From Octopus vulgaris (lineage: Eukaryota): DNA of 64,000 nt. Of the stretch, positions 9,292-48,920 are shown piece after piece. The stretch spans positions 101,990,001-102,054,000 of the forward strand of contig OX597814.1 in NCBI GenBank assembly GCA_951406725.2, given 5' to 3'. Both the position numbers and the translations under genes were made by a program. The first letter of the stretch is position 1. Each line of letters opens with the position of its first letter. Under the pieces are notes generated by a model, which was not told the DNA's origin, did not search any database, and saw only the letters and a program-made list of their open reading frames with translations.

Positions 9292-9360
9292 ACACAGACA
9301 AGTCTATCCTGAATATGTGTGCACGTAGAAATAATGAATTGTGTTCATATATATATTACT

Positions 9361-9580
9361 CTCTTTTCTCTTTTACTTGTTTCAGTCATTTGACTGCGGC
9401 CATGCTGGAGCACCGCCTTTAATCGAGCAACTCGACCCCGGGACTTATTCTTTTGTGAGCCCAGTACTTATTCTATCGGTCTCTTTTGCCGAACCACTAA
9501 GTAACGGGGACATAAACACACCAGCATCGGTTGTCAAGCAATGCTAGGGGGACAAACACAGACACACAAACACACACACA

Positions 9581-9621
<41 letters not shown>

Positions 9622-9779
9622 GACGGGCTTCTTTCAGTTTCCGTCTACCAAATCCACTCACAAGGCTTTGATCGGCCCGAGGCTATAGTGGAAGACACTT
9701 GCCCAAGGTGCCACGCAGTGGGACTGTACCCGGTACCATGTGGTTGGTAAACAAGCTACTTACCATACAACCACTCCTA
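9361..9779 (-). mobile_element. tRNA-derived SINE family 1, full length
   Basis: Matches repeated consensus ggagtggctgtgtggtaag..gggttcagtccc..microsatellite..ctccagcatggccgcagtcaaatgactgaaac. Confidence 0.9.
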
Positions 9780-10109
9780 TATTTCATATATGTATATTAT
9801 TTTCATACATATATTTTCTATTTCAATGTTATTTCTAGCAATGTTTACGAAACACGATATCTACAATATAAAGTTAAATACACTTAAATACAGTTAAGTG
9901 TCCACTTCAACGAATATTTTAGATATTAAGTAATTTATGCTCCAGGGAAAGTGTTAACAGGAACAACAACTAGCAAGACAAAAATATTATGAAAAACAAA
10001 AGCCAGACAATGTCATTGTTTATTGTTTATTTTAAACCTTAGATAAGGAAAAGTGTTTCAACAACAGGAATTATGACACAAGAATGGGCAATCCTACTTT
10101 CCAATATAT

Positions 10110-10488
10110 AGGAGTGGTTGTATGGTAAGTAGCTTGATTACCAACCACATGGTTCCGGGTTCAGTCCCATAACGTGGAACCTTGGGCAAGTGTCTTCTAC
10201 TACAGCTTCGGGGCCGACCAAAACCTTGTGACTGGATTTGGTAGACGGAAACTGAAAGAAGCCTGTAGTATATATAACATATATATGTGTGTGTTTGTGT
10301 GTCTGTGTTTGTCCCCCACCATCGCTTGATAACCGATGTTGGAGTGTTTACGTCCCCATAACTTAGTGGTTCGGCAAAGCAGACCAGTAGAATAAGTACT
10401 AAGCTTACGAAGAATAAGTCCTGGGCTCGATTTGTTCGACTAAAAGGCGGTGGTCTAGCATGGCCGCAGTCAAATGACTGAAACAGAT
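10110..10488 (+). mobile_element. tRNA-derived SINE family 1
   Basis: Same consensus with A/B-box-like head. Confidence 0.9.
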
Positions 10489-10592
10489 ACAAAAATATAT
10501 ATGTATGTGTGTGTGTATGTGTGTGCGCGCGAGTGTGTATAAATATATATATATATATATACACACACACATGCATACATACGTATATGTAC

Positions 10593-10715
<123 letters not shown>

Positions 10716-10716
10716 C

Positions 10717-11640
<924 letters not shown>

Positions 11641-11844
11641 AAAAGAATATATATCTATATGTGTGTGGTGTGGTGTGTTTTGAAAAATAAAGTCAGGTTT
11701 CTTTTAATTTTGCATGAACAAACGTTAGTATGATATTTACAAATTAGTAAAAATAAGACCCACCGTTATAGAGATGAGTATCATGTTTATAATATCATGT
11801 CAGTAGCTATACAATGGTAAAAAAAATTAAATAAATAAATCTCT

Positions 11845-12255
11845 TCTACTTGTTTTAGTCATTTGCCTGTGGCCATGCTGGAGCACCGCTTTTAGTCGAG
11901 CAAATCGACCCCAGGACTTATTCTTTGTAAACCCAGTACTTATTCTATCCGTTTCTTTTGCCGAACCGCTAAGTTACGGGGTTGCCAACACACCAGCATC
12001 GGTTGTCAAGCGATGTTGGGGGGGGGAAACACAGACACACAAACATACACACACACACACACACATACACATATATATATATACATATATACGACGGGCT
12101 GCTTCCAGTTTCCGTCTAGCAAATCCACTCACAAGGCTTCGGTCGGCCTGAGGCTATAGTAGAAGACACTTGCCCAAGGTGCCACGCAGTGGGACTGAAC
12201 CCAGAACCATGTTGTTGGTAAGCAAGCTACGTACCACACAGCCACCTCTACGCCT
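11845..12255 (-). mobile_element. tRNA-derived SINE family 1
   Basis: Same consensus, reverse orientation. Confidence 0.9.
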
Positions 12256-12674
12256 ATAAATGGTAAAAAAATATTCCAAATTGAAAAGAAATCCCTCCTC
12301 CTCCTTTTCTCTACCTATTCGTCTGTCTATTTATCAATCTATCTATTTATCTATCTATTTGTCTGTCTGTTTGTCTATCTATTACCTATCTATCTACTTA
12401 TTTATCTCCATTGTCCTGGAACCTCACCTAAAAGAACAAAAAATAAAAAAAAACAATGTTCTCTTCCAAAAAACAAGAAAAAAATCACTTGATTTGTATA
12501 AATGAAGAACCTGTTTGCACATTCACTATTTTATTTGACAAGTTCGAAAACGAACGAAAGGGCTAATAATGACTAAATAAAAAATCCTTTTTCTAAAATT
12601 CTATCGTCCTCTTCTTCTCAATATTCAATATCTGTACACCAATTCTAACACACACACACACACATACTCTCTCT

Positions 12675-13781: not shown

Positions 13782-13891
<110 letters not shown>

Positions 13892-13892
13892 T

Positions 13893-13924
<32 letters not shown>

Positions 13925-13966
13925 TAGATAGATAGATAGATAGAAAGCTATACATACATACATACA

Positions 13967-13998
<32 letters not shown>

Positions 13999-14105
13999 CG
14001 CACACGCACATATATGCATGCGTATACAATAAAAAATATACAATAGTGTAAGTGCGCGTGAGTTTTTGTACGTGCATAAGTGCGTGAGAGAGAGAGAGAG
14101 GGAGG

Positions 14106-14157
<52 letters not shown>

Positions 14158-14985
14158 AATTTTTTAAAAATCCTATTTGCACCATCAACTCCGTTGGTCG
14201 AATACGCCTGCCAACAACAAAATTTCCTGTTACATCTAAGCGAATCATTGTAAATTCTGCAACTCTATATATGTAAGCCACGCCGATTATGCTGTTAGGA
14301 AGCAACTGAAATTTTATTTTACGACGTACATATCATATTGGCGAGACAAATCGTAAACCTATGCATGGAGATCAGAAATGGTTTACTCAAATTTAACATA
14401 TTTCATTAACGTTCGATCGAAACTTGCAATATATCGACCCCAGGACTTATTTGTTCCAGGTTAATGGAAAACGGCCGTTAGTCAGACATAAATGATTCAC
14501 ATAAGCTGAAGGCAAAAATGTGATTTATTATTACTCCGCACTAGCCGAGTAAATAATAACCATCTATCTTTAATTGTGTTATCATTAGGTTTGGAAGCTT
14601 GTTTTCATTTATTTCGGTAAATATTAGAATACAAAATGAAACCGAACTATTTATGAAATCGCACAAGAATACCTGATAGCATTCGAATATTTAAAATTAT
14701 TAGACGTATTAAAATTGGATAATCCATTTGAACATTTACTGACGAGCACTTTCCGCAATTTTTGGTCTCATTCACATGGCACACTTTCCTCATAAGGAAA
14801 ATATACTAAATATACATTCGTAATATTATGTCTAATTAACTTTGATTGAATATTTTATCTCACTTATAGCAAGCAGTTACGTAAGTTGCTTTAACTTTCA
14901 GCAAAATTTTTAGTCTTTCACATATTATAACTACCAATCAGGTCGAGATCTCATTATTTTGAATAATTCTTTTGACGTTTAACCT

Positions 14986-15846
14986 GCGACTTTTGAATAT
15001 CGAAAATAATGCAATAGGAATCTCAGGGCAAGTTGCCGAAGAAGGTTTCAGCAAAGCTTTTCTAAATTTAACCAGCCTCGAAGAATTACATCTTTCAAAT
15101 AACCACATTCAATATTTATCAAACAACAGTTTGTTACAGCTGAAAAATCTCAGAATCTTAAATTTACGCAACAATTTATTGGAATCTTTTGATGTAAAGA
15201 TTAGTCATATGTTAAATTTATCATATTTAGATTTATCTAAAAACATTTTACAGGAACTGTCGGAAAACACTTTTAATGCTATTGAAAAGATATCTGAACA
15301 CCATAAATTCACTGTCAACATCCAAAGCAATAATTTGAAATGTGGTTGTGCACAAATAAGATTTCTCACTTGGCTGCACAAAGTACGGAATTCAGGTCGT
15401 TTGAAAATAATGTACTCGAAATGTACTCATCCTAACGGAACAGTGTGGAAGTTGAAAGGAAATCAGCTTGTTAGGATCACACTTGTTCAGCCTTGATAAT
15501 AATTGATAATAATTGCGATAAGTTTTGGTGTTGTAATACTGATTATATTTCTAGTTGCCTCACTCATTTACCATTTTAGATGGAAGCTACGATATTTATA
15601 TTACATCATCAGAGAAAAGTATTCCTACAAACGACTCACTCCCGATGAATATATTTATGATGCATTTGTGATTTATGCCGACGAGAATTGAGATTTTGCA
15701 TTAAATTATTTGATTCCAGAATTGGAAGAAAACGAAAACTTACGTTTGAATATTCATCATCGGGACTTCCCTGTTGGAAAATTGATAACAGAAAATATAT
15801 TATCAGCAATCCAATCTAGTCGAAAATGTATTATTTTATTAAGCAG
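14986..15846 (+). pseudogene. Toll-like receptor paralog A, 5'-deleted pseudogene
   Basis: Near-identical to TLR-C 63368-64000 but lacks the start codon and N-terminal LRRs; stops at 15494-15502 and 15689-15691; TIR half YDAFVIY...RDFPVG...IILLS ends at the same AG|GTAAGT donor; no second exon found by eye. Confidence 0.92.
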
Positions 15847-17505: not shown

Positions 17506-18865
17506 TGTATGTATGTATGCATGTATGCATGCATGCATGCATGCATGCATGTATGTTAATGTTAAGAAATTCTTTAGGCAATAAACTACGATATCCAACA
17601 ACTAACATTATGTTCACTAATTTAATTATTCTTGGTTTCAGATTAAAAAAAAAAAACTTATACAAGTATTAAACTATTAGGGACATCTAACTTGGGTAGA
17701 ATAGTTTTCTTTGACGCTTCTAGGGGAAAAGGATAATCTAGTTGATCAACATAATTTTGGCAAAAAGTTCGTTCACTCAAGTAGAATACTATTGCATTGG
17801 TGTCATTTGAAATTCCATAGGATATTCACTCTCGTATTATGCTACAATACAACATTGCACACAATCCTGTATCAAATATTGCCAAAATATCTGGACAGCT
17901 AAATATTCTTAAGCTGTAATTATGAGATAAAACTTGCATTTGAGCCTCTCAGTTGCTCATTAAAAGGTCTCCAAAATACCACCAATATCATGGGTGTATT
18001 CAGAAATTTGTTGTCTCGATGTTTCCGGAAAACTCTACCAGTCATCATAAAAGCAATACTTGACTGATAAACTGAAAGCTTGCTTGAAAGAAGGCTAATT
18101 TTGAAGACCAGAGAAGAAACTTCTATCTTTCTACTAACATGAAAATTGCAATTAAAAGACTGTTTCCTCAACAAAATTTATATTTACAAAACTGTTTCTT
18201 GAGCGGCTGTTAATGATAACCTACCAGTTTTCAATGAGATTGGAAGTGTCAAAATACAAAAATATGTCGAAATATTATTATATCTATTGAACTTTTATCC
18301 CAGACTCTTGCAGAAGTGCAGAGGCAATAAGTGACTGTGCGAACGTGACATCCTAGCCATGAAAATAACTTTTCACAGCATATTAATATCACCATTATTC
18401 AACAAGTATCTACCCAGTTCAGCACAATCAGCCAATTATCTGACAGTTTCTCAATTCTTTACAGCACATCTGCGACTCTCTTCACAATCTGCAGCTGAAA
18501 GTAGGAACACCTAACTATGTTACTACGGAACTTAAAGCACCCTAATGGCTCTTTTCTCTGCTTTTCTAAGACGACTAATATTTCTTGTGAACATATAAAG
18601 TAGGGGTCACCAAACTTTACCGACCATCGACCCATTTAACCACTTCTCTTTCCGTATCGACCCACTTCAGCCATTTTTCTTTTCACATCGACCCCCTTTA
18701 GTCATTTTTCCTTCTGCATCAACCTCCTTTAGCTACATCCCCTTCCACATCGCCCACCCTCCTCATTCAAAATATCTTAATACCCTATCCTACCGTACCT
18801 TATCTTAAATGCGTGATGGATACTGATGCTGGCAATTAAAATGTCAGCTAAAATATACATGTAAT

Positions 18866-19015
18866 AGGCGCAGGAGTGGCTATGTGGTAAGTACCCACAT
18901 GGTCATGGGTTCAGTCCCACTGCGTGGCATCTTGGGCAAGTGTCTTCTACTATAGCCTCGGGCCGACCAAAGCCTTCTCAGTGGATTTGCTAGACGGAAA
19001 CTGGAAGCAGCCCGT

Positions 19016-19073
<58 letters not shown>

Positions 19074-19305
19074 GTGTATGTGTGCGTGTGTATCATTGTG
19101 CGTCTGTGTTTGTCCCTCCAACATCGCTTGACAACCGATGCTGGTGTGTTTATGTCCCCCGTAACTTAGCGGTTCGGGAAAAAGGCCCGATAGAATAAGT
19201 ACTAGGCTTACAAAGAATAAGTCCTGGGGTCGATTTGCTCGACTAAGGGCGGTGCTCCAGCATGGCCGCAGTCAAACGACTGAAACAAGTAAAAGAATAA
19301 AAGAA
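18866..19305 (+). mobile_element. tRNA-derived SINE family 1
   Basis: Same consensus. Confidence 0.9.
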
Positions 19306-19802
19306 TGAATTAAGAAATTCTTTTGAAGATGACACTTTTTACATTTAAAACTACGTGTACATGTACACAGTATTAGAAAATGTGAAAAACGCATCATATT
19401 TTACCACGTTTCATGGCGCTGACTAAGTATGTCAAGTAGTTCATCTGGGTGTGCTAGTTTTCGCACGCCGACACCCATTCAACCCTTTGCCTATCAACGA
19501 CACACCATGTAATTCCTCGCCGGTCCCTAGGCCTCTGGCAACCCTTGATATAAAGCAATCGGTTCCCTTGTTTACCTGTCCCTGGTCGATTTATATATTG
19601 ACCACATGCAGTGGCAACAACTTATATATACGTATAAATGATAAATATATGGTGGGTGGAAGTCGATTTATATATATATATTTTTTTATATAGTGTCTAT
19701 TCCATCTCAATCACAGATTTTTTAACTCTTTTTTTTTTAATTAAACAGTTTGAAACTTCGGATACTGGTAGAATTCCTCACATAGAAGACGGTTTACTCT
19801 GA

Positions 19803-22189: not shown

Positions 22190-23510
22190 ACACCCGCATA
22201 GATTGCGTATCCGATTTGGACCATCACGAGCTGCATTTACGTTCTGATTTTTGTGGATCTCATAATGTCTTTTGAGACCTCCGTTAGATTTGCAAACCTT
22301 CTGGCATACATTGCATTCAGATGTGTGCACAGGCATTTAGGCAGAAATGTTCGTCGAGGTTCGTTATCCATGGGTTCGCTAATGAGATCTGAGCCCAGCA
22401 AAAGAAAGGCACGGTTGGTCAAAAACTGTGAACACAAAAAGATTATTGTCATTCACCTTCTCGATCTTAACATTCTTCCTTAAATCTCTTTTGAGTCTTG
22501 CATGCGTTATCCTGGCCTCTTCAAACGCTTTCACTCCACTCCACTCTTTTGTTCGCCATCCAGCTCGATTCGAAGCAAAGGTTTCTATGTCCTCTGGATC
22601 CATTACAAGTGACTTTATAATAGTCCTTATGCCGTCCTGAAACCTTTTTTTAAGTTTACACCGATGGCGTTTCCCCTCAGGCAAGCTCATCATAAAACAG
22701 CTGTTTGAGCATGTGTTCAACCGCCATTCGAACAATATGGCCACATCATCTCATTTGGTTTCTCAAAATCATTTCTTTAATTGAAGTGATGCCTGCAGAT
22801 GCAAGGACATCTGTATTAGGAGTAAAAGAACTCCATTTAATGTTTAAAATGCGCTGAAGGCATTTTTGGTTGAATTGTTCTAACAATTTAAAATGTCTTT
22901 CATAACATTCCATGTTTTACAAGAATGCAAGGATGGTAAGACAAATGATTTGTAAAGAGCTGTTATTTATATGTCGCTGGCGCCAAACACATGATTCCAA
23001 GTCACCAAATGCTTTTACTGCCTCTTGAATTCGCATATATATTTCTGTATCAAGATTTCCATAATTTTGTACAGAGCTTCCAAGGTAGATGAACGAATCA
23101 ACAACCTCAAATAACTTACCTCTAACAAAAATCTTAGGGAGCGGGTTACAAACAGCACCACACGCAGGTTGATGCATTACAAATTTTTTTTTCATGTTGA
23201 TGGTCAAGCCAAAATCATCACAGGCCGAGTCAAATGCTGATACAAGAGATTGCAGACTTGTTTCAGAATGACTGACAAGATCGCAATCGTCAGCGTATAA
23301 AAGTTCCCTAATAAATGCAATAAAAACCTTCGTTTTAAATTTCAGTTTGGTCAGATTAAAAACATACCCTGTTCTTCGATATTTTATGTAAATACTCTTC
23401 TCAGAGTTTTGGAAAGCATGTGACAACACAACAGCAAAGTATATTGCAAAGAGGGTGGGTGCATCAAGGTCAGTCACTACCACCAAAATTAACTCTAGCT
23501 TTCATATCTT
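22190..23510 (-). mobile_element. RTE/BovB-type LINE, RT and 3' end, degenerate
   Basis: APTLFAIYF, ELLYADDCDL, FGLTINMKK, FIYLGS, GKRHRCKLKKRFQD, C-terminal GLRSH. Confidence 0.9.
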
Positions 23511-25948: not shown

Positions 25949-26756
25949 GGATGGATGGATGGATGGATGGATGGATGGATGGATGGATGGATGGATGGAT
26001 GGATGGATGGATGGTGTGTGCAAAAGGTAATGAATTAATAGAAGCTGGAAGTATTTTGCAATTGTGTAAGTCAAATACGACAGCCATTATGGTGAAGGAA
26101 AGATGTGTACCGAAATCTTAAGAGAGATCTGGTAAATGTTCGAGCTGATAAAATGAGGTTTAAAACAGCAGAAATTCAGAATATTATAATGACGTAATTT
26201 TACGTAGAAATTCTGACAATTGAATTCTTTGTTCAAAATGAAAGGCTATAACACTTCACTCGCCGTTGATTTCAATCAAATGAGTGTTTTTTAATCATTC
26301 TTATTATTGCTACAATGAAGTAAATAGATAACTCGGTGAAAGGATACCACGCTACGATTAATTTCCCTACGTTTAATTTTTCTATCAAGCGGTATTACTA
26401 GGAAATGAGTTTAAACTGAATACATACAAATTGGTAAAATATAATGAAGTGAATAAACTACACTGAACAACTGTATGTATATATACATACCTTAACTCCT
26501 TAAAACACTTGCGTTCGTTAATTTATAATATTTTATATGACATTAAAAATTATATTTTCAATTACAGCTCGCTTAAGATTAGCAACAAATATTTTCCCGC
26601 TTTTTAGTTTTCCCTTATCATTTGTATGTAAAATATATTTCTTTCCGTCTATCATGCGTATATATAATCAGACTTTCAGCTACCATAGATTTCCACAAAA
26701 ACTTGCGAAGCTAAAACTACTTATATTTCTTTCATTATAGGCATGACGATATCTAC

Positions 26757-29002
26757 ATGACAATGAAGGGAATATTCATTTTGGCTTTTGCTTACTTCAT
26801 GAAAACTTTTATTAAAGTGACTGCGAATTGTCAAACAGACTGCCCTGATGTTTGCAACTGTACTGAGATTATATTCAGCCGCTGTACTGTAATCTGTAAA
26901 GATCAAAATCTAACTCAAATGCCTGTTTCTTTTCCAAAGAATGCTACGTCAATAGATTTAAGTCGAAATCGTATTAAAAGTATTCCAGCGGATAGTTTGA
27001 AGCACTTAAATTTATTAGAGGTGCTGAAACTTGATGATAATCTTCTTGAACGTTTTCAACCGACCGTCTTTGAAGGTTTGTGGTCCTTGAAAGAACTCTC
27101 GTTAGAGTACAACCGACTAACTATGACTTATAAATCCTTTCCTATAAACCTGTTCCAAAATTTAACAAAAGTGAAAATTCTGAAATTACGAGGTAACTCA
27201 TTACTACGTAACCGTGCAACCTATATCGATAAAACTATTTCTTATTTAACTTCACTGGAACAATTATTTATGACAGGTACTAAATACAGTTACTTTGGAG
27301 CGGGGTATACAAAACTGTCAAACTTAAAGTATGTTAGCTTTGCTACAAAGCGAAATAAATCAAATCTGCGCTCCGTCACGGGTGGCACCTTTGTCAATAT
27401 ACCATATGTTGCCTACTTGAATGTCAGTTACTCTCAATTAGCTGTAATTGATAAAATAGCATTTCGATTTTTAAATAATCTAAGAGTTCTAGATATTTCA
27501 AATAATAATATTTGTGACGGATACGGTGATTTCTTCTCAGGTTTCCAGTTAACTCATCATCTTGAATATCTTGCCCTCAATAATATCATTGCTAGGAATA
27601 ACCTTGGAATGCCCTTATATGCGAGACAAGGATCACAATTACATCATACATCACTGAAAAGATTCGAGTTTAGTTATAACAGACTGGAATATATTGAGCC
27701 CAATTTTATTTCTTCTTTGCCCAAAACATTGGAATACGCATATTTGAGAAATAATATATTAACATATGGAAAATATTTGCTTGAAATCAAGACTTTAACC
27801 AACATTAAATTAATTGACATTAGTACGACGTTATCACATAAAAACCTTCCATTATTTCGTTATAAATTACTCAATAGGGATACTACTTACAGTTTTACAA
27901 TCTCTAAATCTCTTAAAACACTCTTACTACAAGGTTGCCACTATCAATTTCCGATACCACCATTCCATATAAAAGATGCAAATGCAATAAGATTAATTAA
28001 TGCAACGAATAATTTATTTTGTCCATGGAGTGGCCCAGTCCGAGGCTTAGAACAATTACAAATTCTGGATTTAAGTCACAACCAATGCAATAATATCAGT
28101 AACGAATTCTTCACATATTTCACTGGTCTGCGACTTTTGAATATCGAAAATAACGCAATAGGAATTTCAGAGCAAGTTGCCAAAGAAGGTTTCAGCAAAG
28201 CTTTTCAAAATTTAACCAGCCTTGAGGAATTATATCTTTCAAATAACAACATTCAATATTTATCAAACAACAGTTTGTTACAGCTGAAAAATCTCAGAAT
28301 CTTAAATTTACGCAACAATTTATTGGAATCTTTTGATGTAAAGATTAGTCATATGTTAAATTTATCATATTTAGATTTATCTAAAAACGTTTTACAGGAA
28401 CTGTCGGAAAACACTTTTAATGCTATTGAAAAAATATCTGAACACCATAAATTCACTGTCAACATCCAAAGCAATAATTTGAAATGTGGTTGTGCACAAA
28501 TAAGATTTCTCACTTGGCTGCACAAAGTACGGAATTCAGGTCGTTTGAAAATAATGTACTCGAAATGTACTCATCCTAACGGAACAGTGTGGGAGTTGAC
28601 AGACAGTCGGCTTCCTTTGATTATAACCTATCTTAACCATAGTTGTTCATCATTTATCGGTATAATTATCGCTGTAACATGTCTTATTGTGCTTCTGGGT
28701 TGCTTTTCTGTTGGAGCTCTTGTTTACCATTTTAGATGGAAACTACGATATTTGTATTACATGATCCGAGAACGATACGCATATCAGAGAATACAAACTA
28801 GGGAATATCTTTATGACGCTTTTGTATCTTATGCAGAAGAAGATCGAGGTTGTGTTGTTGAATATCTAATTCCAGAACTTGAAGAAAAGGATACGTTTAA
28901 ACTGAATATCCATCATCGAGATTTTCCTGCAGGGAAGCAGATTGCTGAAAATATATTGTTTGCTATCCAATCGAGTCGAAAATGTCTTATTTTACTGAGC
29001 AG
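26757..29002 (+). CDS. Toll-like receptor paralog B, coding exon 1 (signal peptide, LRRNT, LRRs, LRRCT, TM, N-terminal half of TIR)
   Basis: 749-aa ORF with hydrophobic N-terminus, CQTDCPDVCNC LRRNT, many LxxLxLxxN repeats, NNLKCGC..CTHP..C LRRCT, TM IGIIIAVTCLIVLLGCFSVGALVY, TIR box1 YDAFVSY and box2 LNIHHRDFPAG; ends at AG|GTAAAT donor (29002/29003). Confidence 0.96.
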
Positions 29003-29584
29003 GTAAATGTTCACCGTTTATTAGTATTCTATCAAAATGTATTAATTTTATTTCTAACCTTTTCCTTTCATTTTTTTCCTTACGTTTTGATAAATTTTAG
29101 CTATTTTTTAAAAGAAATTAAATCGTCAATCCCAACACATTACTTGAAGTGTTTAAATAAATCTTGCATTTCGGGGTGGTCACTTTTTTTTTGCCAAATA
29201 AACACACACACTATATATTTTTTCTTCACTCGTTTATTACTGTTCTTATTTTATTATTTTAACTCGTGTTCACCGCCCGGAAACTTTTCGCCACACATCT
29301 GTGACCTCTTCAGTGACACTTTTCGTTTTCGTGTGTTTTCTTGCACCAAAAACTGGATTCTGTCTTGAAGAAAAAGATATGTCGAAATATAAAACTTATT
29401 ACAGCTTGGTAGCCATATGTTTTTATGAATATCTATTTGTAAGACATCTTATCTAACGCCATAGCCAGAGGGAGAGAATATAGGAGGAGAGAGAGAGGGG
29501 GAGGGAGAGAAAGGAGGAGGAGGATGAGAGAGGGAGAAAGTGTATGTAAAAGTAGGGAAGGTGGTAGCACTCTTTCTTTTTGGA

Positions 29585-37507: not shown

Positions 37508-37745
37508 GAACTTTTTGGCAAGTGAATGGTGTATGTTTGAATATAACATGGCTAAAATGGAATGTGTTCACGCTGAAAGAGATTTGGTAATTGTCATAAT
37601 GCTCGAAGAATTCTCTGTAGACATTCTACCTTTGCAATTAAAGCATCAAATCAAAATGCAGAGTTATATATGTTTTCCGACTGAGAACGCGACGACAAGT
37701 GATGTTTTCTGGAATAATCTTAAAAAATCTATACGAGAAGGTTAA
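37508..37745 (+). CDS. Toll-like receptor paralog B, coding exon 2 (C-terminal half of TIR)
   Basis: TTTCAG acceptor ends at 37507; phase-2 join AG|G gives LLSR-NFLASEWCMFEYNMA...VIVIMLE...SYICFP...FWNNLKKSIREG*, completing the TIR domain in frame. Confidence 0.93.
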
Positions 37746-39529: not shown

Positions 39530-42500
39530 TTCTGGGTGCGGATTTTTTGAACAATTTTAATCTATTGGTAGATGTCAGGAGACAGAGACTCGTCGACGGT
39601 TCTACGTCTTAGTCTACACCTGCAAAGGCCACTACCAATGCTGTTCTATGTCCTTCATTTTTGTTGCCACTGCTGGTGATGTATTTCATTCACTCTTAGC
39701 TTCTTTCCCAGAGTTGGTAGATCAGCTATTCCAAACGGCAAAACTATCAGTCTTTTCACGCCTGCGGCGACTTGCTCCTGACCGTGTTAAGAAGGCTAGG
39801 TCCGAGTTTGAGCATATGCTCCAGCTTGGCCTTATTCGCCCCCTCCACCAGCCCTTGGGCATCTCCCCTTCATTTGGCACGAAAATGGGATTCTGATTTT
39901 CGCCCGGTGGGGGATTATAGACGTTTGACCGCGGTCACTGTTCCTGATCGCTATCCCATAATATATCTCCAGGACGTCTCTAATTTGCATGGTTGTACTA
40001 TTTTTTTCTAAGGTTGACCTAGTTCGTGCCTATCATCAAATACCAGTCAATCCTGAAGACGTTCCAAAAACTGCCATCACTACTCCCTTTGGCAGCTTCA
40101 AGTTCCTTTTTATGAGCTTCGGTTTGCGGAACGGCACGAGCATGTTCCAAAGATTTATCGATGAAGTTGTCTGTGGACTTGATTTTGTGTTCGCTTACGT
40201 TGAGGACATACTCATTGCAAGCGACAAGCGTGAGAATCACCTCCAACACTTAAATAAACTCTTTCAATGTCTTCGCGCCAACAATGTGCGAATCAATCCC
40301 AATAAGTGTGTTTTCGGACAGTCCTCTTTGGAATTTCTGGGGCATTATATCGACTCAAATGTTATCAAACCTCTCTCTTCCAAAGTTGATACAATTCAGC
40401 GCATCGCACTCCCCACTTCACTACGCCAACTCCGCCACTTTTGGGGATTCGTCAACTTCTACAGACGATTCATTCTTGACAGTGCAGAAAGGTTACTTCC
40501 CTTGACTCAGCTATTGAAGGAAAATACAAAAAGAATTCTCCTATTACTTTATCTGCCTTGGCGTTATCTGCTTTTGAGTCAATCAAGAAAGAAATAGCTT
40601 CTGTCCCTTTGCTGCCACATCCAGTTCCCGATGCTCCTCTCTCTTTAACCGTTGTTGCATCGGATTCTTCGGTTGGTGCTGTTTTGCAGCACACCGTAGA
40701 CAATCAGACTAAACTTTTGGCGTTTTCTTCTCGTCAATTAAAGCCAGCTGACCGTCGCTACAGTACGTTTGATCGCGAGCTCTTGGCGATCTACTTGCCA
40801 GTTCGTCATTTTCAACATCAACTCGAGAGCCGATTTTGTGATTTATACTGATCACAAGCCTCTTACGTTTGCTCTGTCATCTAAATAGGACAAATATTCG
40901 CCTCGTGCTTTTCGTCACCTGGACTACATTTTCCAGTTTACGAGTGACATTCGACACATACCTGGAACAGAGAACGTACCTGCTAACACACTCTGTCGTC
41001 TCCCTATGTGCTCCCTTTCATCTCCTGCTACAATCGATTTACCTGCCATTGCGCAGGATCAGCCAGCTCTGGACACTTTGGATTTACCTTCTACCAAGCT
41101 GTCCTGTTGCAAGTTTGCCTATCTTCCACTTCCGTCTGCAGAAGGCACCATTCTTTGTGACACAGTCACTGGTTCCCCCAGACTGTTTGTACCTGAGAAC
41201 TACCAGCGCTCTGTGTTTGATGCCTTGCATTTACTGTCCCATCGTGGCGTCGCTGCCCCGGTGAAGTTTATTTCGGCTCGGTTTTTCTGGCCTAATATGC
41301 GCCAGATGATCACAGAGTGGGCACGCTCTTGTGTAGAATGCCAGCGTTCTAAAACCCACAGGCATATTCGCGCTCCTCTTGGACAGTTTTCTCCTCCGGA
41401 GGCTCGCTTTCGTCATGTCCACATTGATCTGGTTGGACCATGGCCTATCAGTCGCGGTTTCTCTTATATATTGACATGCGTGTATCGTTTCTCTTGTTGG
41501 CCAGAGGCCATTCCAATTGTGGATATTTCTGCTGAGTCAGTTGCTCGAGCTTCCGTTTCTAACTGGATTGCTCGCTTTGGTGTCCCAGCTAAAATAATCA
41601 TTGATCGTGGACGCCAGTTCGAGGCTTCACCATTTCGTGAATTATCACGAATTCTAGGCATTCATCACATTCGTACGACCAGCTACCACCCAGCCTCCAA
41701 CGGGATGGTCGAACATTTTCACAGACAACTGAAGGCCGCTCAACGCGCCAATCCTGATCCGCAGTCTAGGACAGAATTCCTGCCAATCGTTCTTCTTGAT
41801 TGTCGTACTGCTGTTAAAGCAGACTTAGGTTTCTCCTCTGCTGAACTCCTTTACGGTACTACTCTGGCACTCCCTGGTACAATGTTAGCGCCAGACAACT
41901 CATCGCCTCCTGATCCAACGTCGTATGTCACCAGACTTCGCTCGTATTTCGCAAGTCTTCCACCTTTGCATCCGCGTGACCAGTCTATTTCCTCTCACGT
42001 CCCACCGGATATTAACAAATGGACTCATGTTTATGTTCGGGGTGATTCTGTCAGAGGGTCTCTCGTTTCTCCTTATAAGGGACCATTTCGTGTGCTATCG
42101 TGCACACCCAAAACTACTCGACATCAATGGTCGGGTAAAGACCGTGTCGGTCGACAGGCTTAAAAGGGCACATTTTGAGGTGTCCACACTCTTCAATGTC
42201 ACCCCAAATACGCCCACCTTTTATCCTTTACAACCACCTACACATCCACATGCACATGCACCTTTGACCACACCATCACCTATACCTTCACCTTCGTCAC
42301 CACTACCTAACACGAACAAACCCTATGTCACCAGGACTGGCTGCACTGTGCATTGGCCCCAAAAACTTACTAAAACTATTTATATCTGACAATCTCTTTC
42401 GTTTTACCTGTAACAGACAATTGCTTTCTTGTGTTACTGGACAGTTCCAATACTCTGCTACTGAACATTTTGTCAAATTTTGTGCATGCCAATTTATATT

Positions 42501-44420: not shown

Positions 44421-46133
44421 AGGGATAATGCATTCTAATGTAGAAACTAGTGTTAAAATTTTGAAATGATGCCAAATTGTTTTTTCAAACTGTTTTTTCC
44501 AAAATTTTAATTTCCCCATAAACCTTTTATCTTCTGAGAATAGGTGACCAAATCTGATTTTCTACCTTGCAGCTCTAAGTTAAGTAGATTCACTGTTTTA
44601 AAAATATCACTCAAGTAGAATATTTTTTATTTAAACTCAGAAAGTCTTTCCAAAATTTTCTTAACTGTATCAGCTTGCTTCTTGGAGTTGTAATGAGTCA
44701 TTTGACTCTTGAACATGAGAAAGTTGATTAATGGTTGCCACAAATTCACTAGTCTTTCAAGGATCAGACCATTTGACAACCATCTTACTTCTGCATGAAG
44801 CAATAGGGCTTTAAAATCTTCATCTTCACAGAATTGCCTAAAATATCTATTATTCACTGAGTTTGATTTGACAAAGTTAATTGCATATATGGTAGTATTG
44901 AGTGCTTCTTCCATGTGTCCTCCAATATTCTTAGCAACCAAATGCTGTCTGTGGATAAAAGATGTAAGGAGCAAAACAAAGCCTTTCACTTTTCCAGTCA
45001 TGGCTGCAGCTCTATCTGATGCAATGTTGATCAAGTTAGTCAATGGAATATTTTTATTATTAAAATACTGCATTACTTCATTGAATATATCTTCTCCATT
45101 AGTAGTTTCCGACAAACTTTTAATGAATAACTTTTCTTCCCTTATGTCATCTTCATGGACGAATCTGACATAGACCAGAAGGATAGCTTGGTTATGAATT
45201 GTGCTATCATCAAACTGGATAGAAAAATTTGTCTTTTGGAGAATTTCCACAATCTTCTTATCAATAAAATTAGACATTTCATCCTGTCTTCTTGTAATTG
45301 TGTTATTTGAAAGTGGAATTGTACTCAGAGTAGATGCAGCATCTTTTCCCAGAACCTCATTTGCACAAGCTATCAAAGCAGGCTTGACAAGTTTCTTACC
45401 ATAAATTTGAGGTGCTGCAACCTTGGCAATAATTTCAGAGATCAAATAACTTGGTTTGAGTGTCTTTGCTTTTTCAGTATCTATCTTCTTTACAAAGTTG
45501 GATAGTTTGATTGGCTGTATTTTCTTTTTATTCTCAAAATATTCCCTACCTTTGCCAACAAATGATGGATGCCTTAATTTCTGGTGCTGTTCCAGCTTAA
45601 CTTTCTTTATGGAATGATTTGTCATGATGGCATCACATTCAAGACACATAGGTTTTGAGTCTACAGATACAAAACCAAATATGATAAAATCTTCTTTGTA
45701 GTTCCTCAGTTTTGCAATTTTAGTAGTTGGTTCAGACATTATTACAACTGATCTTAAAATTAAAATAATAAATACTCTATTTCAATAAAATAATAAATAC
45801 TTTCTATAAATTAAAAGTATCAAATTTATTATTAAACAATATTGTATATTAAAAATATCAAATTTATTATGAAACTGTTATGATTGTAAAATTTAAATTC
45901 TTGATTGTAATATAATATTGATTTTGTTATTATACATTATTGATTCTTATGGAATAATTATTGAGTTTTGTTTATTATTATTATTATTATTCTGTTTTCA
46001 TATCAATTATTAACTAACTGTGTTTTTATTATCGAACAATATTGTGTAGATCTGAAATGGCTTCAATGATTTTTATGGTTACGAATTCTCTGGGGACTAC
46101 CGGTGGCCCTAGGAACCACGTTGCGAATCACTG
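44420..46133 (-). mobile_element. hAT (Buster/Charlie-type) transposon, 3'-truncated; transposase ORF 44627-45739
   Basis: KPMCLEC..LEQH BED finger, IPLSNNTITRR, FSIQFDDST, IASDRAAAMTG, FIHRQHL, EVRWLSNG; terminus CAGTGATTCGCAAC on minus strand ending at 46133. Confidence 0.9.
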
Positions 46134-46675: not shown

Positions 46676-46710
<35 letters not shown>

Positions 46711-46711
46711 T

Positions 46712-46910
46712 ATAGGAGTGGCTATGTGGTAAGTAGCTTGCTTATGAACCACATGGTTCTGGGTTCAGTCCCACTGTGTGGAACCTTGGGCAAGTGTCTG
46801 TTACTATAGCCTCGAGCCAACCAAAGCCTTGTGAGTGGATTTGGTAGACGGAAACTGAAAGAAGCTCGTCGTATATATGTATATATGTGTGTGTATACGT
46901 TTGTGTGTTA
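46712..46910 (+). mobile_element. SINE family 1, 5' half
   Basis: Same consensus head. Confidence 0.85.
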
Positions 46911-47074
46911 GACAATTTAGCTCTTATTTCTATTAGATCATTAGCTCTTATTTCTATCAATCTAGTTATTTTTTAACACCCTAATCACATTTAGTGACAA
47001 TTATAAATTCTCCTTTTTTGTGAAACATTGCAACCTGCTCTTCATATACATACATACATACATACATACATACA

Positions 47075-47105
<31 letters not shown>

Positions 47106-47121
47106 CTACATATATACATAT

Positions 47122-47204
<83 letters not shown>

Positions 47205-47374
47205 GCCACTAAACAAATATTTTTCTCTCCTTGTTTTTTCTGTGTCCCTTTCTGTAGAAGAGCGTAGGCTCGAAATGTAAAAGACTTTTTCTATTCCTGA
47301 GCGTTATACTAATACATCTGTTTGTTTTGTACACCACCTATCTTCGTCTTTTGTTTCTTCGTAAACTCTCCCTA

Positions 47375-47499
<125 letters not shown>

Positions 47500-47624
47500 A
47501 TGTATATGTACATATAATATTTGTAAACAAACCCGGAGGCTTGATAATTTGCAGAGAAAGATCAACAATGAAATTTTTTATACAGTAATACTATAAAATA
47601 ATATATAATAATAATAATTTTACA

Positions 47625-48920
47625 TGGAAAAATGTAAGCAAAAAAAATTATATTCTGAAGATTATAAACCTGGAAAAGTACAGGACAAGTGTTATTACAC
47701 TTGGAAAAGTTCAAGACAACTTATTACATCTGTTAAAGTACAAAACAAGAACATTTTTACGTAAAATATTACAATTAAGGCTAAAATTTCAAATAAAATA
47801 TTTAGATTTAGAACATATTAGCTTTTATTCAGACTAAAAATTTTATAACAAGTTATTACTTCTGTTTGTTATTGCTTGTTACTTCTATAAAAATTAAAAA
47901 TAACTCAATTAAAATAATTTTTTTACTTTAAAAAATGCATTTTTTTAAAATTATTAATTTACTAATTAGAAATTTGAAAATAGGTTATAAAAAATAATAG
48001 TAGTGCATAATTGGTTAGTACAATGAATAGAAGAATACAAAAATTAGTTATATATTACAGTAAAATCTACCTATAACAACAATTTCTCAGTAAAATTTGC
48101 TTGAGTTATTGCCTAAGATATTGCCAATTCTCCACATTTTTAGTCTTGGCCCTATGCCTATATTTTACATAATGAATTTGCCTACCATGTATACTCTTTA
48201 CTTACTTGTTTTCAGTCATTTGACTGCGGCCATGCTGGAGCACCGCCTTTAGTCGAGCAACTCGACCCCGGGACTTATTCTTTTTGTAAGCCCAGTACTT
48301 ATTCTATCGGTCTCTTTTTGCCGAACCGCTAAGTGACGGGGACGTAAACACACCAGCATCGGTTGTCAAGCAATGCTAGGGGAACAAACACAGACACACA
48401 AACACACACACATATATATATATACATACATATATATGACAGGCTTCTTTCAGTTTCCGTCTACCAAATCCACTCACAAGGCATTGGTCGGCCCGGGGCT
48501 ATAGCAGAAGACACATGCCCAAGATGCCACGCAGTGGGACTGAACCCGGAAACATGTGATTGGTTAGCAAGCTACTTACCACACAGCCACTCCTGCGCCT
48601 ATACTGTTCTATTTTCCATAAAACTTTAGCTATATTGGTACTTCTTGCTCTCATTTTTTAAGTATTCTAGTGTGTCAATATTTTAACAAAATGATGGTAT
48701 TTTTATAATTATAATGTTACTTTGTAAATTAAAATGAAATAATTTCCAGCATTCAAATTTTATCCTTAACTGCAATATTTTAAGTAAAAATTTTCTTGTT
48801 CTGTACTTTACCAGATGTAATAAGTTGTCCTGAACTTTTCCAAGTGTAATAAATTGTCCTGTACTTTTCCAGATTTATAATCTTAAGAAAATTATTTCTC
48901 TTGCTCTCATCTTTTCCAGG
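47625..48920. mobile_element. AT-rich foldback/MITE with ~170-bp inverted arms, with a SINE inserted
   Basis: ggaaaagtacaggacaa..acttattacatctg / cagatgtaataagt..ttgtcctgtacttttcc; ~30-bp internal subrepeats. Confidence 0.65.
48193..48600 (-). mobile_element. tRNA-derived SINE family 1
   Basis: Same consensus. Confidence 0.9.

Follow-up and report, generated by a model that had tools for sequence, protein, structure and literature searches.

Patchwork similarity of tandem Toll-like receptor genes in Octopus vulgaris: a probable case of recurrent gene conversion in the membrane-proximal ectodomain

The stretch of 64,000 nucleotides of Octopus vulgaris DNA analyzed here (contig OX597814.1 of assembly GCA_951406725.2, positions 101,990,001 to 102,054,000; hereafter the window) raises the question of how two Toll-like receptor (TLR) genes can be almost identical over a part of their ectodomain and differ strongly on both sides of it. 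A preliminary description of the locus, made from the sequence alone, had attributed this patchwork to recent gene conversion or unequal crossover that holds the membrane-proximal scaffold constant while putative ligand-binding LRRs diversify, so that ectodomains could be shuffled onto different TM/TIR tails.

The TLR genes of the window

Self-BLAST and tblastn searches of the window yielded three TLR copies, which are located on the forward strand in the order A-B-C and are listed with their segments in Table 1. The deduced TLR-B protein is 100% identical over 747 amino acids to the gene model P0001, which its source designates as toll-like receptor 4 of Octopus vulgaris, an automatic label that does not denote orthology. 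Pfam matches in TLR-B comprise LRR_8 and TIR. The AlphaFold2 model of the protein (mean pLDDT 92) contains a strand at every LRR start and a TM helix at residues 632-656, and its closest matches among solved structures are ectodomains of vertebrate TLRs, with TLR3, TLR8 and TLR4 as the best PDB entries. According to the Pfam matches, the cysteine positions, the LRR register (from which the LRR numbering used here, our own, was derived) and the structural model, TLR-B has the architecture of a single-cysteine-cluster TLR with a signal peptide, an LRRNT, an uninterrupted LRR solenoid and one LRRCT. The TM helix is followed by the TIR domain in TLR-B, and TLR-C can be followed up to the TM within the window. 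This architecture resembles the LRRNT-LRR-LRRCT-TM-TIR order given for molluscan single-cysteine-cluster TLRs in the available text of PMC10279657, and the identity to gastropod and bivalve TLRs is about 30%. TLR-C shares 81-86% of residues 200-667 with the C-type proteins of O. bimaculoides.

Contigs of two public sequencing runs (X1 and X9) pass from the first into the second exon of TLR-B, with loose ends at 29003 and 29000, and cross the intron as a spliced transcript would. Another contig of X9 (depth 170) joins the end of the TIR exon of TLR-A (15818-15846) to the splice acceptor of TLR-B at 26741, and the gene model P0001 contains the identical join; TLR-B may be transcribed as a read-through from the pseudogene, which is devoid of its own last exon.

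TLR-A differs from TLR-C at 139 of 814 aligned nucleotides in the upstream region, and self-BLAST paired positions 13829-14985 with 60728-61916. About 1.45 kb are deleted in TLR-A, so that the C-like upstream DNA jumps straight into the block shared with TLR-B and TLR-C; the deletion, the junction of which is also present as a loose end in run X9, likely removed the splice acceptor, the ATG, the signal peptide and LRR1-15. Retained are the LRR16-LRRCT part of the block, a C-type stalk/TM and the first TIR exon, with a 16-nt deletion and a 4-nt insertion in the stalk/TM and a TGA at 15689-15691 in the first TIR exon; the copy has frameshifts and a stop. A second TIR exon of TLR-A was not found ahead of TLR-B, tblastn matching only the second exon of the latter.

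Table 1. Coordinates of TLR genes and their segments in the window
Feature	Position	Strand	Remarks
TLR-A upstream non-coding region	14161..14983	+	homologous to TLR-C upstream 61056-61918; marks A as C-type
TLR-A, C-type pseudogene	14984..15846	+	three-way alignment with B and C
TLR-B main coding exon	26741..29002	+	ATG 26757/26763; signal peptide, LRRNT, 19 LRRs, LRRCT, TM, first part of TIR
TLR-B LRR4-9, central and hypervariable, two deep versions	27171..27653	+	orthologue and run-contig differences
TLR-B shoulder, LRR11-12, partly homogenised	27711..27926	+	dS 0.40 to C; Argonauta quartet sites
TLR-B block, putatively converted	27927..28592	+	second half of LRR13, LRR14-19, LRRCT to just past third cysteine; aa 389-610
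TLR-B stalk, TM, first part of TIR, outside tract	28593..29002	+	dS 0.82 to C; TM+TIR tree by paralog
TLR-B second coding exon, rest of TIR	37508..37745	+	tblastn; behind 8.5-kb intron
TLR-C coding sequence	61998..64000	+	open from ATG to window end; TIR outside window
TLR-C block, putatively converted	63165..63830	+	colinear with TLR-B block

Synonymous identity and borders of the shared block

The alignment of TLR-B 27927-28599 with TLR-C 63165-63837 is colinear and free of gaps and contains 16 differences in 673 nucleotides, which agrees with the 15-20 differences, including synonymous ones, that had been estimated by eye. The block codons (27927-28590) carry 6.5 synonymous differences on 133.5 sites, corresponding to a dS of 0.050 and a dN of 0.016, whereas the dS outside the block amounts to 0.86 in the N-terminal LRRs (26763-27360), 1.73 in the central LRRs (27360-27711), 0.40 in a shoulder adjacent to the block (27711-27927) and 0.82 in the stalk/TM (28590-28765, 57 codons). 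The synonymous counts of block and flanks differ with p 2e-23 in a Fisher test. Moreover, conserved degenerate residues are specified by the same codon in TLR-B and TLR-C in 203 of 209 cases within the block and in 154 of 242 cases outside, and the longest run of identical codons (63) was equalled in none of 20000 permutations. The GC3 of the block (0.30/0.29, compared with 0.22-0.38) is not raised and hence provides no signal of biased conversion.

The coding sequences display a three-zone pattern, the borders of which are sharp at the 3' end only (28592/28593). The 5' edge is graded: the block is separated from the LRRs that can barely be aligned by the shoulder of 216 nt (LRR11-12, 67% amino acid identity), which is partly homogenised, likely by older conversion. 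With regard to the divergent tails, the claim is directly borne out for stalk and TM by the dS given above; the TIR domain of TLR-C is located beyond the window, and TIR divergence is documented only through TLR-A (167 of 242 nucleotides identical to TLR-B) and the C-type protein of Argonauta (62% amino acid identity to the B-type).

The pseudogene provides a third version of the block. In 465 nt of this segment it differs from TLR-B at 11 and from TLR-C at 9 positions, and in 154 nt of the stalk/TM at 49 and 5 positions, respectively. At residues 474 and 543, TLR-B and TLR-C share K474 and V543, while TLR-A, the closer relative of TLR-C, has E474 and I543, as does O. bimaculoides. This distribution of residues argues for a direct transfer, and TLR-B and TLR-C likely exchanged DNA after the separation of A and C.

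Recurrence in other octopods and its explanation

The comparison across species was based on proteins and included eight octopod sequences from four species. Besides TLR-B and TLR-C of O. vulgaris, the set comprised the B-type proteins P0002 of O. sinensis, P0003 of O. bimaculoides and P0004 of Argonauta hians, and the C-type proteins P0005 and P0006 of O. bimaculoides and P0007 of A. hians. Two of these models are partial, P0006 being devoid of the tail and P0007 of LRR1-8, and P0005 looks mis-modelled behind the stalk, at the TM. The protein search yielded one B-type match per species. The nearest outgroup found, the 759-aa TLR P0125, shows 39% identity and is equidistant from B and C. P0005 and P0006 show 27 differences among the 160 residues of LRR4-9 and 7 among the 136 preceding ones; they may represent intact orthologues of A and C, or alleles.

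In the quartet of O. vulgaris and Argonauta B and C proteins, 44 sites group the sequences by species, 43 of them in aa 323-610, and 13 sites group them by paralog, 12 of which are located outside this interval; the third pattern does not occur. The shoulder contributes seven species-grouping sites and one paralog-grouping site. Likewise, in the quartet of O. vulgaris and O. bimaculoides nine of ten species-grouping sites, but none of 90 paralog-grouping sites, fall into the block. Separate trees for the segments, as envisaged in the preliminary description and calculated here from proteins, gave the same picture. In the block, the Argonauta B and C proteins and the B, C1 and C2 proteins of O. 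bimaculoides each separate from those of O. vulgaris and O. sinensis, and a B clade is rejected (p-AU 9e-31 and 7e-54), whereas in the LRR9-10 and TM+TIR trees the proteins assort by paralog, an Argonauta clade being rejected (p-AU 0.00065 and 4e-44, respectively). Some branches are only moderately supported, namely the Argonauta pair (89/79 and 94/98) and the B clade of stalk and TM (71/75).

The block of Octopus and Argonauta is 66-72% identical, i.e. about 30% of its residues differ, and the paralogs share those changes. The extent of the tract shifts between lineages: Argonauta B and C are 74-100% identical in LRR11-18, with values of 70% for LRR19 and 66% for the LRRCT unit, so that the Argonauta tract extends into LRR11-12 and fades in LRR19/LRRCT; in every lineage the tract is confined between LRR10 and the stalk. 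Block trees by species together with flank trees by paralog indicate, at the level of sequence comparison, that the duplication of B and C is older than the Argonauta-Octopus split and that homogenisation of the block took place anew in three lineages or more, namely in Argonauta, in O. bimaculoides and in O. vulgaris/O. sinensis. According to the available text of PMC10700109, O. bimaculoides separated from O. vulgaris/O. sinensis about 34 million years ago and O. vulgaris from O. sinensis 2.5 million years ago; a date for the Argonauta-Octopus split was not found in the available text of PMC9635652. An older history of conversion may exist for the N-terminal LRRs as well, as aa 1-230 of Argonauta B share 12 residues with C only and 18 with B only.

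These data are best explained by recurrent conversion of the block with selection at its borders and diversification of LRR4-9, a reading as a whole to which we assign a probability of roughly 0.8. TLR-B and TLR-C would be old tandem paralogs, 35 kb apart on one strand, between which non-crossover gene conversion most likely keeps recopying the LRR13-LRRCT block, and tracts extending into LRR4-10, predicted to set ligand specificity, or into the stalk/TM/TIR, predicted to set signalling specificity, are likely purged by selection. The outcome would be a pair of receptors that share a membrane-proximal scaffold and differ in the predicted ligand surface (LRR4-10) and in the signalling tail, with TLR-B further diversifying LRR4-9, likely as deep balanced alleles. 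Of the earlier proposal, conversion that holds the membrane-proximal ectodomain constant is retained, as a recurrent process and not as one recent event. By analogy with the vertebrate TLRs treated in the available text of PMC2077338 and PMC3125219, the block may also stay alike since C-terminal LRRs form dimer contacts; a prediction of a B-C complex (aa 165-628 with 164-629) gave a score of 0.01 and was uninformative either way.

Selection at the borders would be dispensable if conversion simply persisted where similarity never dropped and the flanks escaped early by chance. This neutral course of events is unlikely, but has to be taken most seriously among the alternatives: the borders wander between lineages, the 5' shoulder is graded (dS 0.40), and the dead copy A is homogenised to an equal degree. 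Identity in the block may hence need no selection in its favour; selection against conversion of the flanks would suffice. It is opposed by the finding that both borders are located inside one exon without an intron or a large indel at either of them, by the confinement of the tract between LRR10 and stalk in all lineages, and by the position of the tract next to a segment in which 11 of 11 nucleotide differences between window-like TLR-B contigs are non-synonymous, the 10 of 10 affected codons alone giving p 0.08.

The modular shuffling proposed at the outset, by which unequal crossover in the block would swap ectodomains onto other TM/TIR tails and build up a repertoire, is highly improbable. 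With 97.6% identity over about 670 nt, the same orientation and a distance of 35 kb, the two copies of the block are a suitable substrate, and rare chimeras would be possible, because identical runs exceed the contig word size and short-read contigs do not phase across the block. Nevertheless, all seven proteins with both ends (four B-type, three C-type; the eighth is without a tail) and the pseudogene pair like front with like tail. As TLR-A combines a C-type upstream region with a C-type tail, the A-B-C order is not a product of crossover, and tblastn detected only three copies in the window.

An assembly collapse or polishing artefact as the source of the identity has to be considered, since the analysis drew on the window and on short-read contigs and 7 of the 16 differences between TLR-B and TLR-C cluster in 28171-28248, where other runs have C-like letters. 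Contigs of 4 of 24 listed runs (X1, X9, X16 and X20) were compared over 26300-29300 (X20 was covered to about 76%, and 40 of 235 letter differences were inspected); their organism labels are coded and cannot serve as verified species. None of the listed runs is recorded as RNA, which says nothing about expression. In X1, X16 and X20, the contigs of B-type and those of C-type all end at position 27951, and a single contig spans 27922-28588 in X16 and in X20, i.e. the graph has two inputs and one block. Since the merging of B and C at 27922-27951 in independent runs needs real shared 31-mers, and the same pattern is present in separately assembled species, an artefact is hardly conceivable. In the cluster at 28171-28248 the C-like states are carried by the block contigs of X16 and X20 and by the B protein of O. 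sinensis; the divergence of TLR-B and TLR-C in the block may accordingly be close to the level of allelic variation, which is a hint, as contigs lose rare variants. X16 and X20 additionally have intron indels in common (8 and 16 nt; 29022-29134) and several coding variants relative to the window, despite different organism labels.

Purifying selection alone, which would accord with the stronger conservation of the block within the ectodomain (45% identity to P0125, compared with 28-33% in aa 165-322), is refuted by the homogenised synonymous sites, the dS of block and flanks not being equal (0.05 against 0.40-1.73) as such selection would have it, and by the grouping of the block by species, orthologues differing at about 30% of block residues through changes common to the paralogs.

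The following comparisons refer to the available texts of the cited papers. In mammals, the tandem paralogs TLR1 and TLR6 evolve in concert by independent conversion in several lineages (PMC2077338). As in the octopods, these paralogs are less than 55 kb apart, conversion is recurrent, and the tract, which begins immediately after the central LRRs, takes in the last LRRs and the C-terminal cap (PMC2077338). Accordingly, the octopod locus shares with TLR1/TLR6 a bounded segment in which paralogs are closer than orthologues, including synonymous sites, and an independent recurrence, the latter seen in proteins only. In contrast, the mammalian tract comprises LRR16-19, cap, TM and three-fourths of the TIR with nearly fixed borders (PMC2077338), while that of the octopods, the genes of which are not orthologues of TLR1/6, ends inside the LRRCT, does not include the TM and most of the TIR and has borders that shift between lineages. 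In the avian TLR1A/B and TLR2A/B genes, the central ligand-binding LRRs likewise stay free and C-terminal LRRs are converted (PMC3125219); TLR2A/B has in addition an N-terminal tract, of which the mixed N-terminal sites of Argonauta are reminiscent, but the C-terminal tracts of birds begin at LRR14 or LRR15 and extend to the TIR domain (PMC3125219), whereas TM and TIR are paralog-specific in octopods. The paired receptors CEACAM1/CEACAM3, Siglec-5/14 and Siglec-11/16 resemble the octopod pair in that conversion equalises the extracellular parts and the cytoplasmic tails differ; however, it is the ligand-binding domain that is equalised there (PMC2832619), while the predicted ligand surface differs here.

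Cephalopod TLR repertoires have been described as small and least variable, and the word conversion does not occur in the main text of that study (PMC10279657); TLR transcripts have been reported from haemocytes (PMC4199593). A literature search, judged by titles and abstract openings and covering few subscription journals, listed no paper that treats cephalopod TLRs with regard to gene conversion or deep alleles. The octopod pair would add a mollusc to the mammals and birds in which concerted evolution of TLRs is described. Its tract leaves out TM and TIR and thereby separates two reasons proposed for the vertebrate tracts, namely to preserve the ectodomain scaffold or to keep the TIR matched with adaptors.

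Variation in the central LRRs of TLR-B

The central LRRs had been considered diversifying because they are barely alignable between TLR-B and TLR-C. With a dN of 0.79 below the dS of 1.73, this difference is, judged from substitutions, old divergence and alone no evidence of hypervariability; diversification is instead supported for TLR-B by allele and orthologue data. Between the B proteins of O. vulgaris and O. sinensis, species labels of which are known to be mixed up (available text of PMC10700109), 64 of the 160 residues of LRR4-9 differ, compared with 11 of the 450 residues that follow; from the B protein of O. bimaculoides they differ at 65 and 62 of the 160 residues, respectively. The C-type proteins show fewer differences in LRR4-9 (27-39 of 160).

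Two versions of LRR4-9 coexist in two of the four runs, X16 and X9, which belong to different studies, on contigs that span 27169/27226-27703. One version is window-like, with 5 (X16) or 2 (X9) differences in 478 nt in these runs labelled organism C. The other is 3 nt shorter and has 21 + 46 differences and a stretch of 114 nt too diverged to align; the indel and the diverged stretch coincide with the places where P0002 differs. If this contig represented the P0002 type, amino acid changes would require 35 or more of the 46 differences in 27470-27703, and dN would be near or above dS. The depths of the two versions in X16 (50.3 and 48.5, merging into a shoulder contig of 92.1, with 82 for the shoulder of TLR-C) fit a heterozygote, depth being no measure of copy number; those in X9 are 183.6 and 19.8. 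X1 contains one unbroken version of LRR4-9 and X20 one window-like version. All 11 nucleotide differences between X20 and the window change amino acids and affect 10 codons, which gives only p 0.08 against neutrality, and p 0.02 against the four non-synonymous and four synonymous codons of the block. Shorter fragments of the central LRRs had no match among 528 candidates.

By LRR register, the positions of LRR4-9 at which the B versions differ number 5 out of 30 on the concave face, 6 out of 30 in the core and 53 out of 100 on the lateral or convex side, and the expectation of variation on the concave face was thus not upheld. Lateral and convex positions are generally less constrained, so that these counts locate the variation without thereby proving selection. 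The two versions are likely deep alleles; the alternatives are a second B paralog or a copy-number variant, and the single TLR-B in the window and the single B-type match per species favour alleles.

More tentatively, and with somewhat less than an even chance of being correct in full, the locus may represent a three-zone octopod TLR pair kept for more than 34 million years, in which a scaffold welded by conversion is combined with paralog-specific TM/TIR tails and, in TLR-B, with an MHC-like allelic cassette of LRR4-9. Versions of this cassette would differ at about 40% of residues, a distance similar to that between O. vulgaris and O. bimaculoides, and balancing selection would act on them as they segregate within animals. 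If so, a single innate receptor locus would make individuals differ in the pathogens that they recognise. The two deep versions of LRR4-9 in TLR-B are a more surprising result than the block itself and a lead worth following. LRR4-9 is the segment in which the ligand surface should be sought and, in a farmed species whose TLR repertoire is described as small and little variable, also resistance alleles.

Further features of the window concern the TIR domain and repetitive DNA. The BB loop (28914-28934 in TLR-B, 15759-15779 in TLR-A) reads RDFP(A/V)G in six of six aligned octopod B/C-type TIR domains and RDF-x-PG in four outgroups, and the canonical proline position is occupied by Ala or Val in the former. 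TLR3 has Ala at this position and uses another adaptor. Judged by eye, broken frames between TLR-B and TLR-C (39962-42163, forward strand) resemble reverse transcriptase and integrase of LTR retrotransposons, and fragments at 44627-45781 (reverse), 53930-54631 (forward), 55574-56341 (reverse) and 22917-23501 (reverse) resemble DNA transposase and LINE reverse transcriptases. A dispersed repeat of 200-400 nt, which is likely a SINE, occurs in many copies of both orientations that are 73-89% alike, at 9346-12258, 18864-19306, 46679-48603 and 60250-60733.
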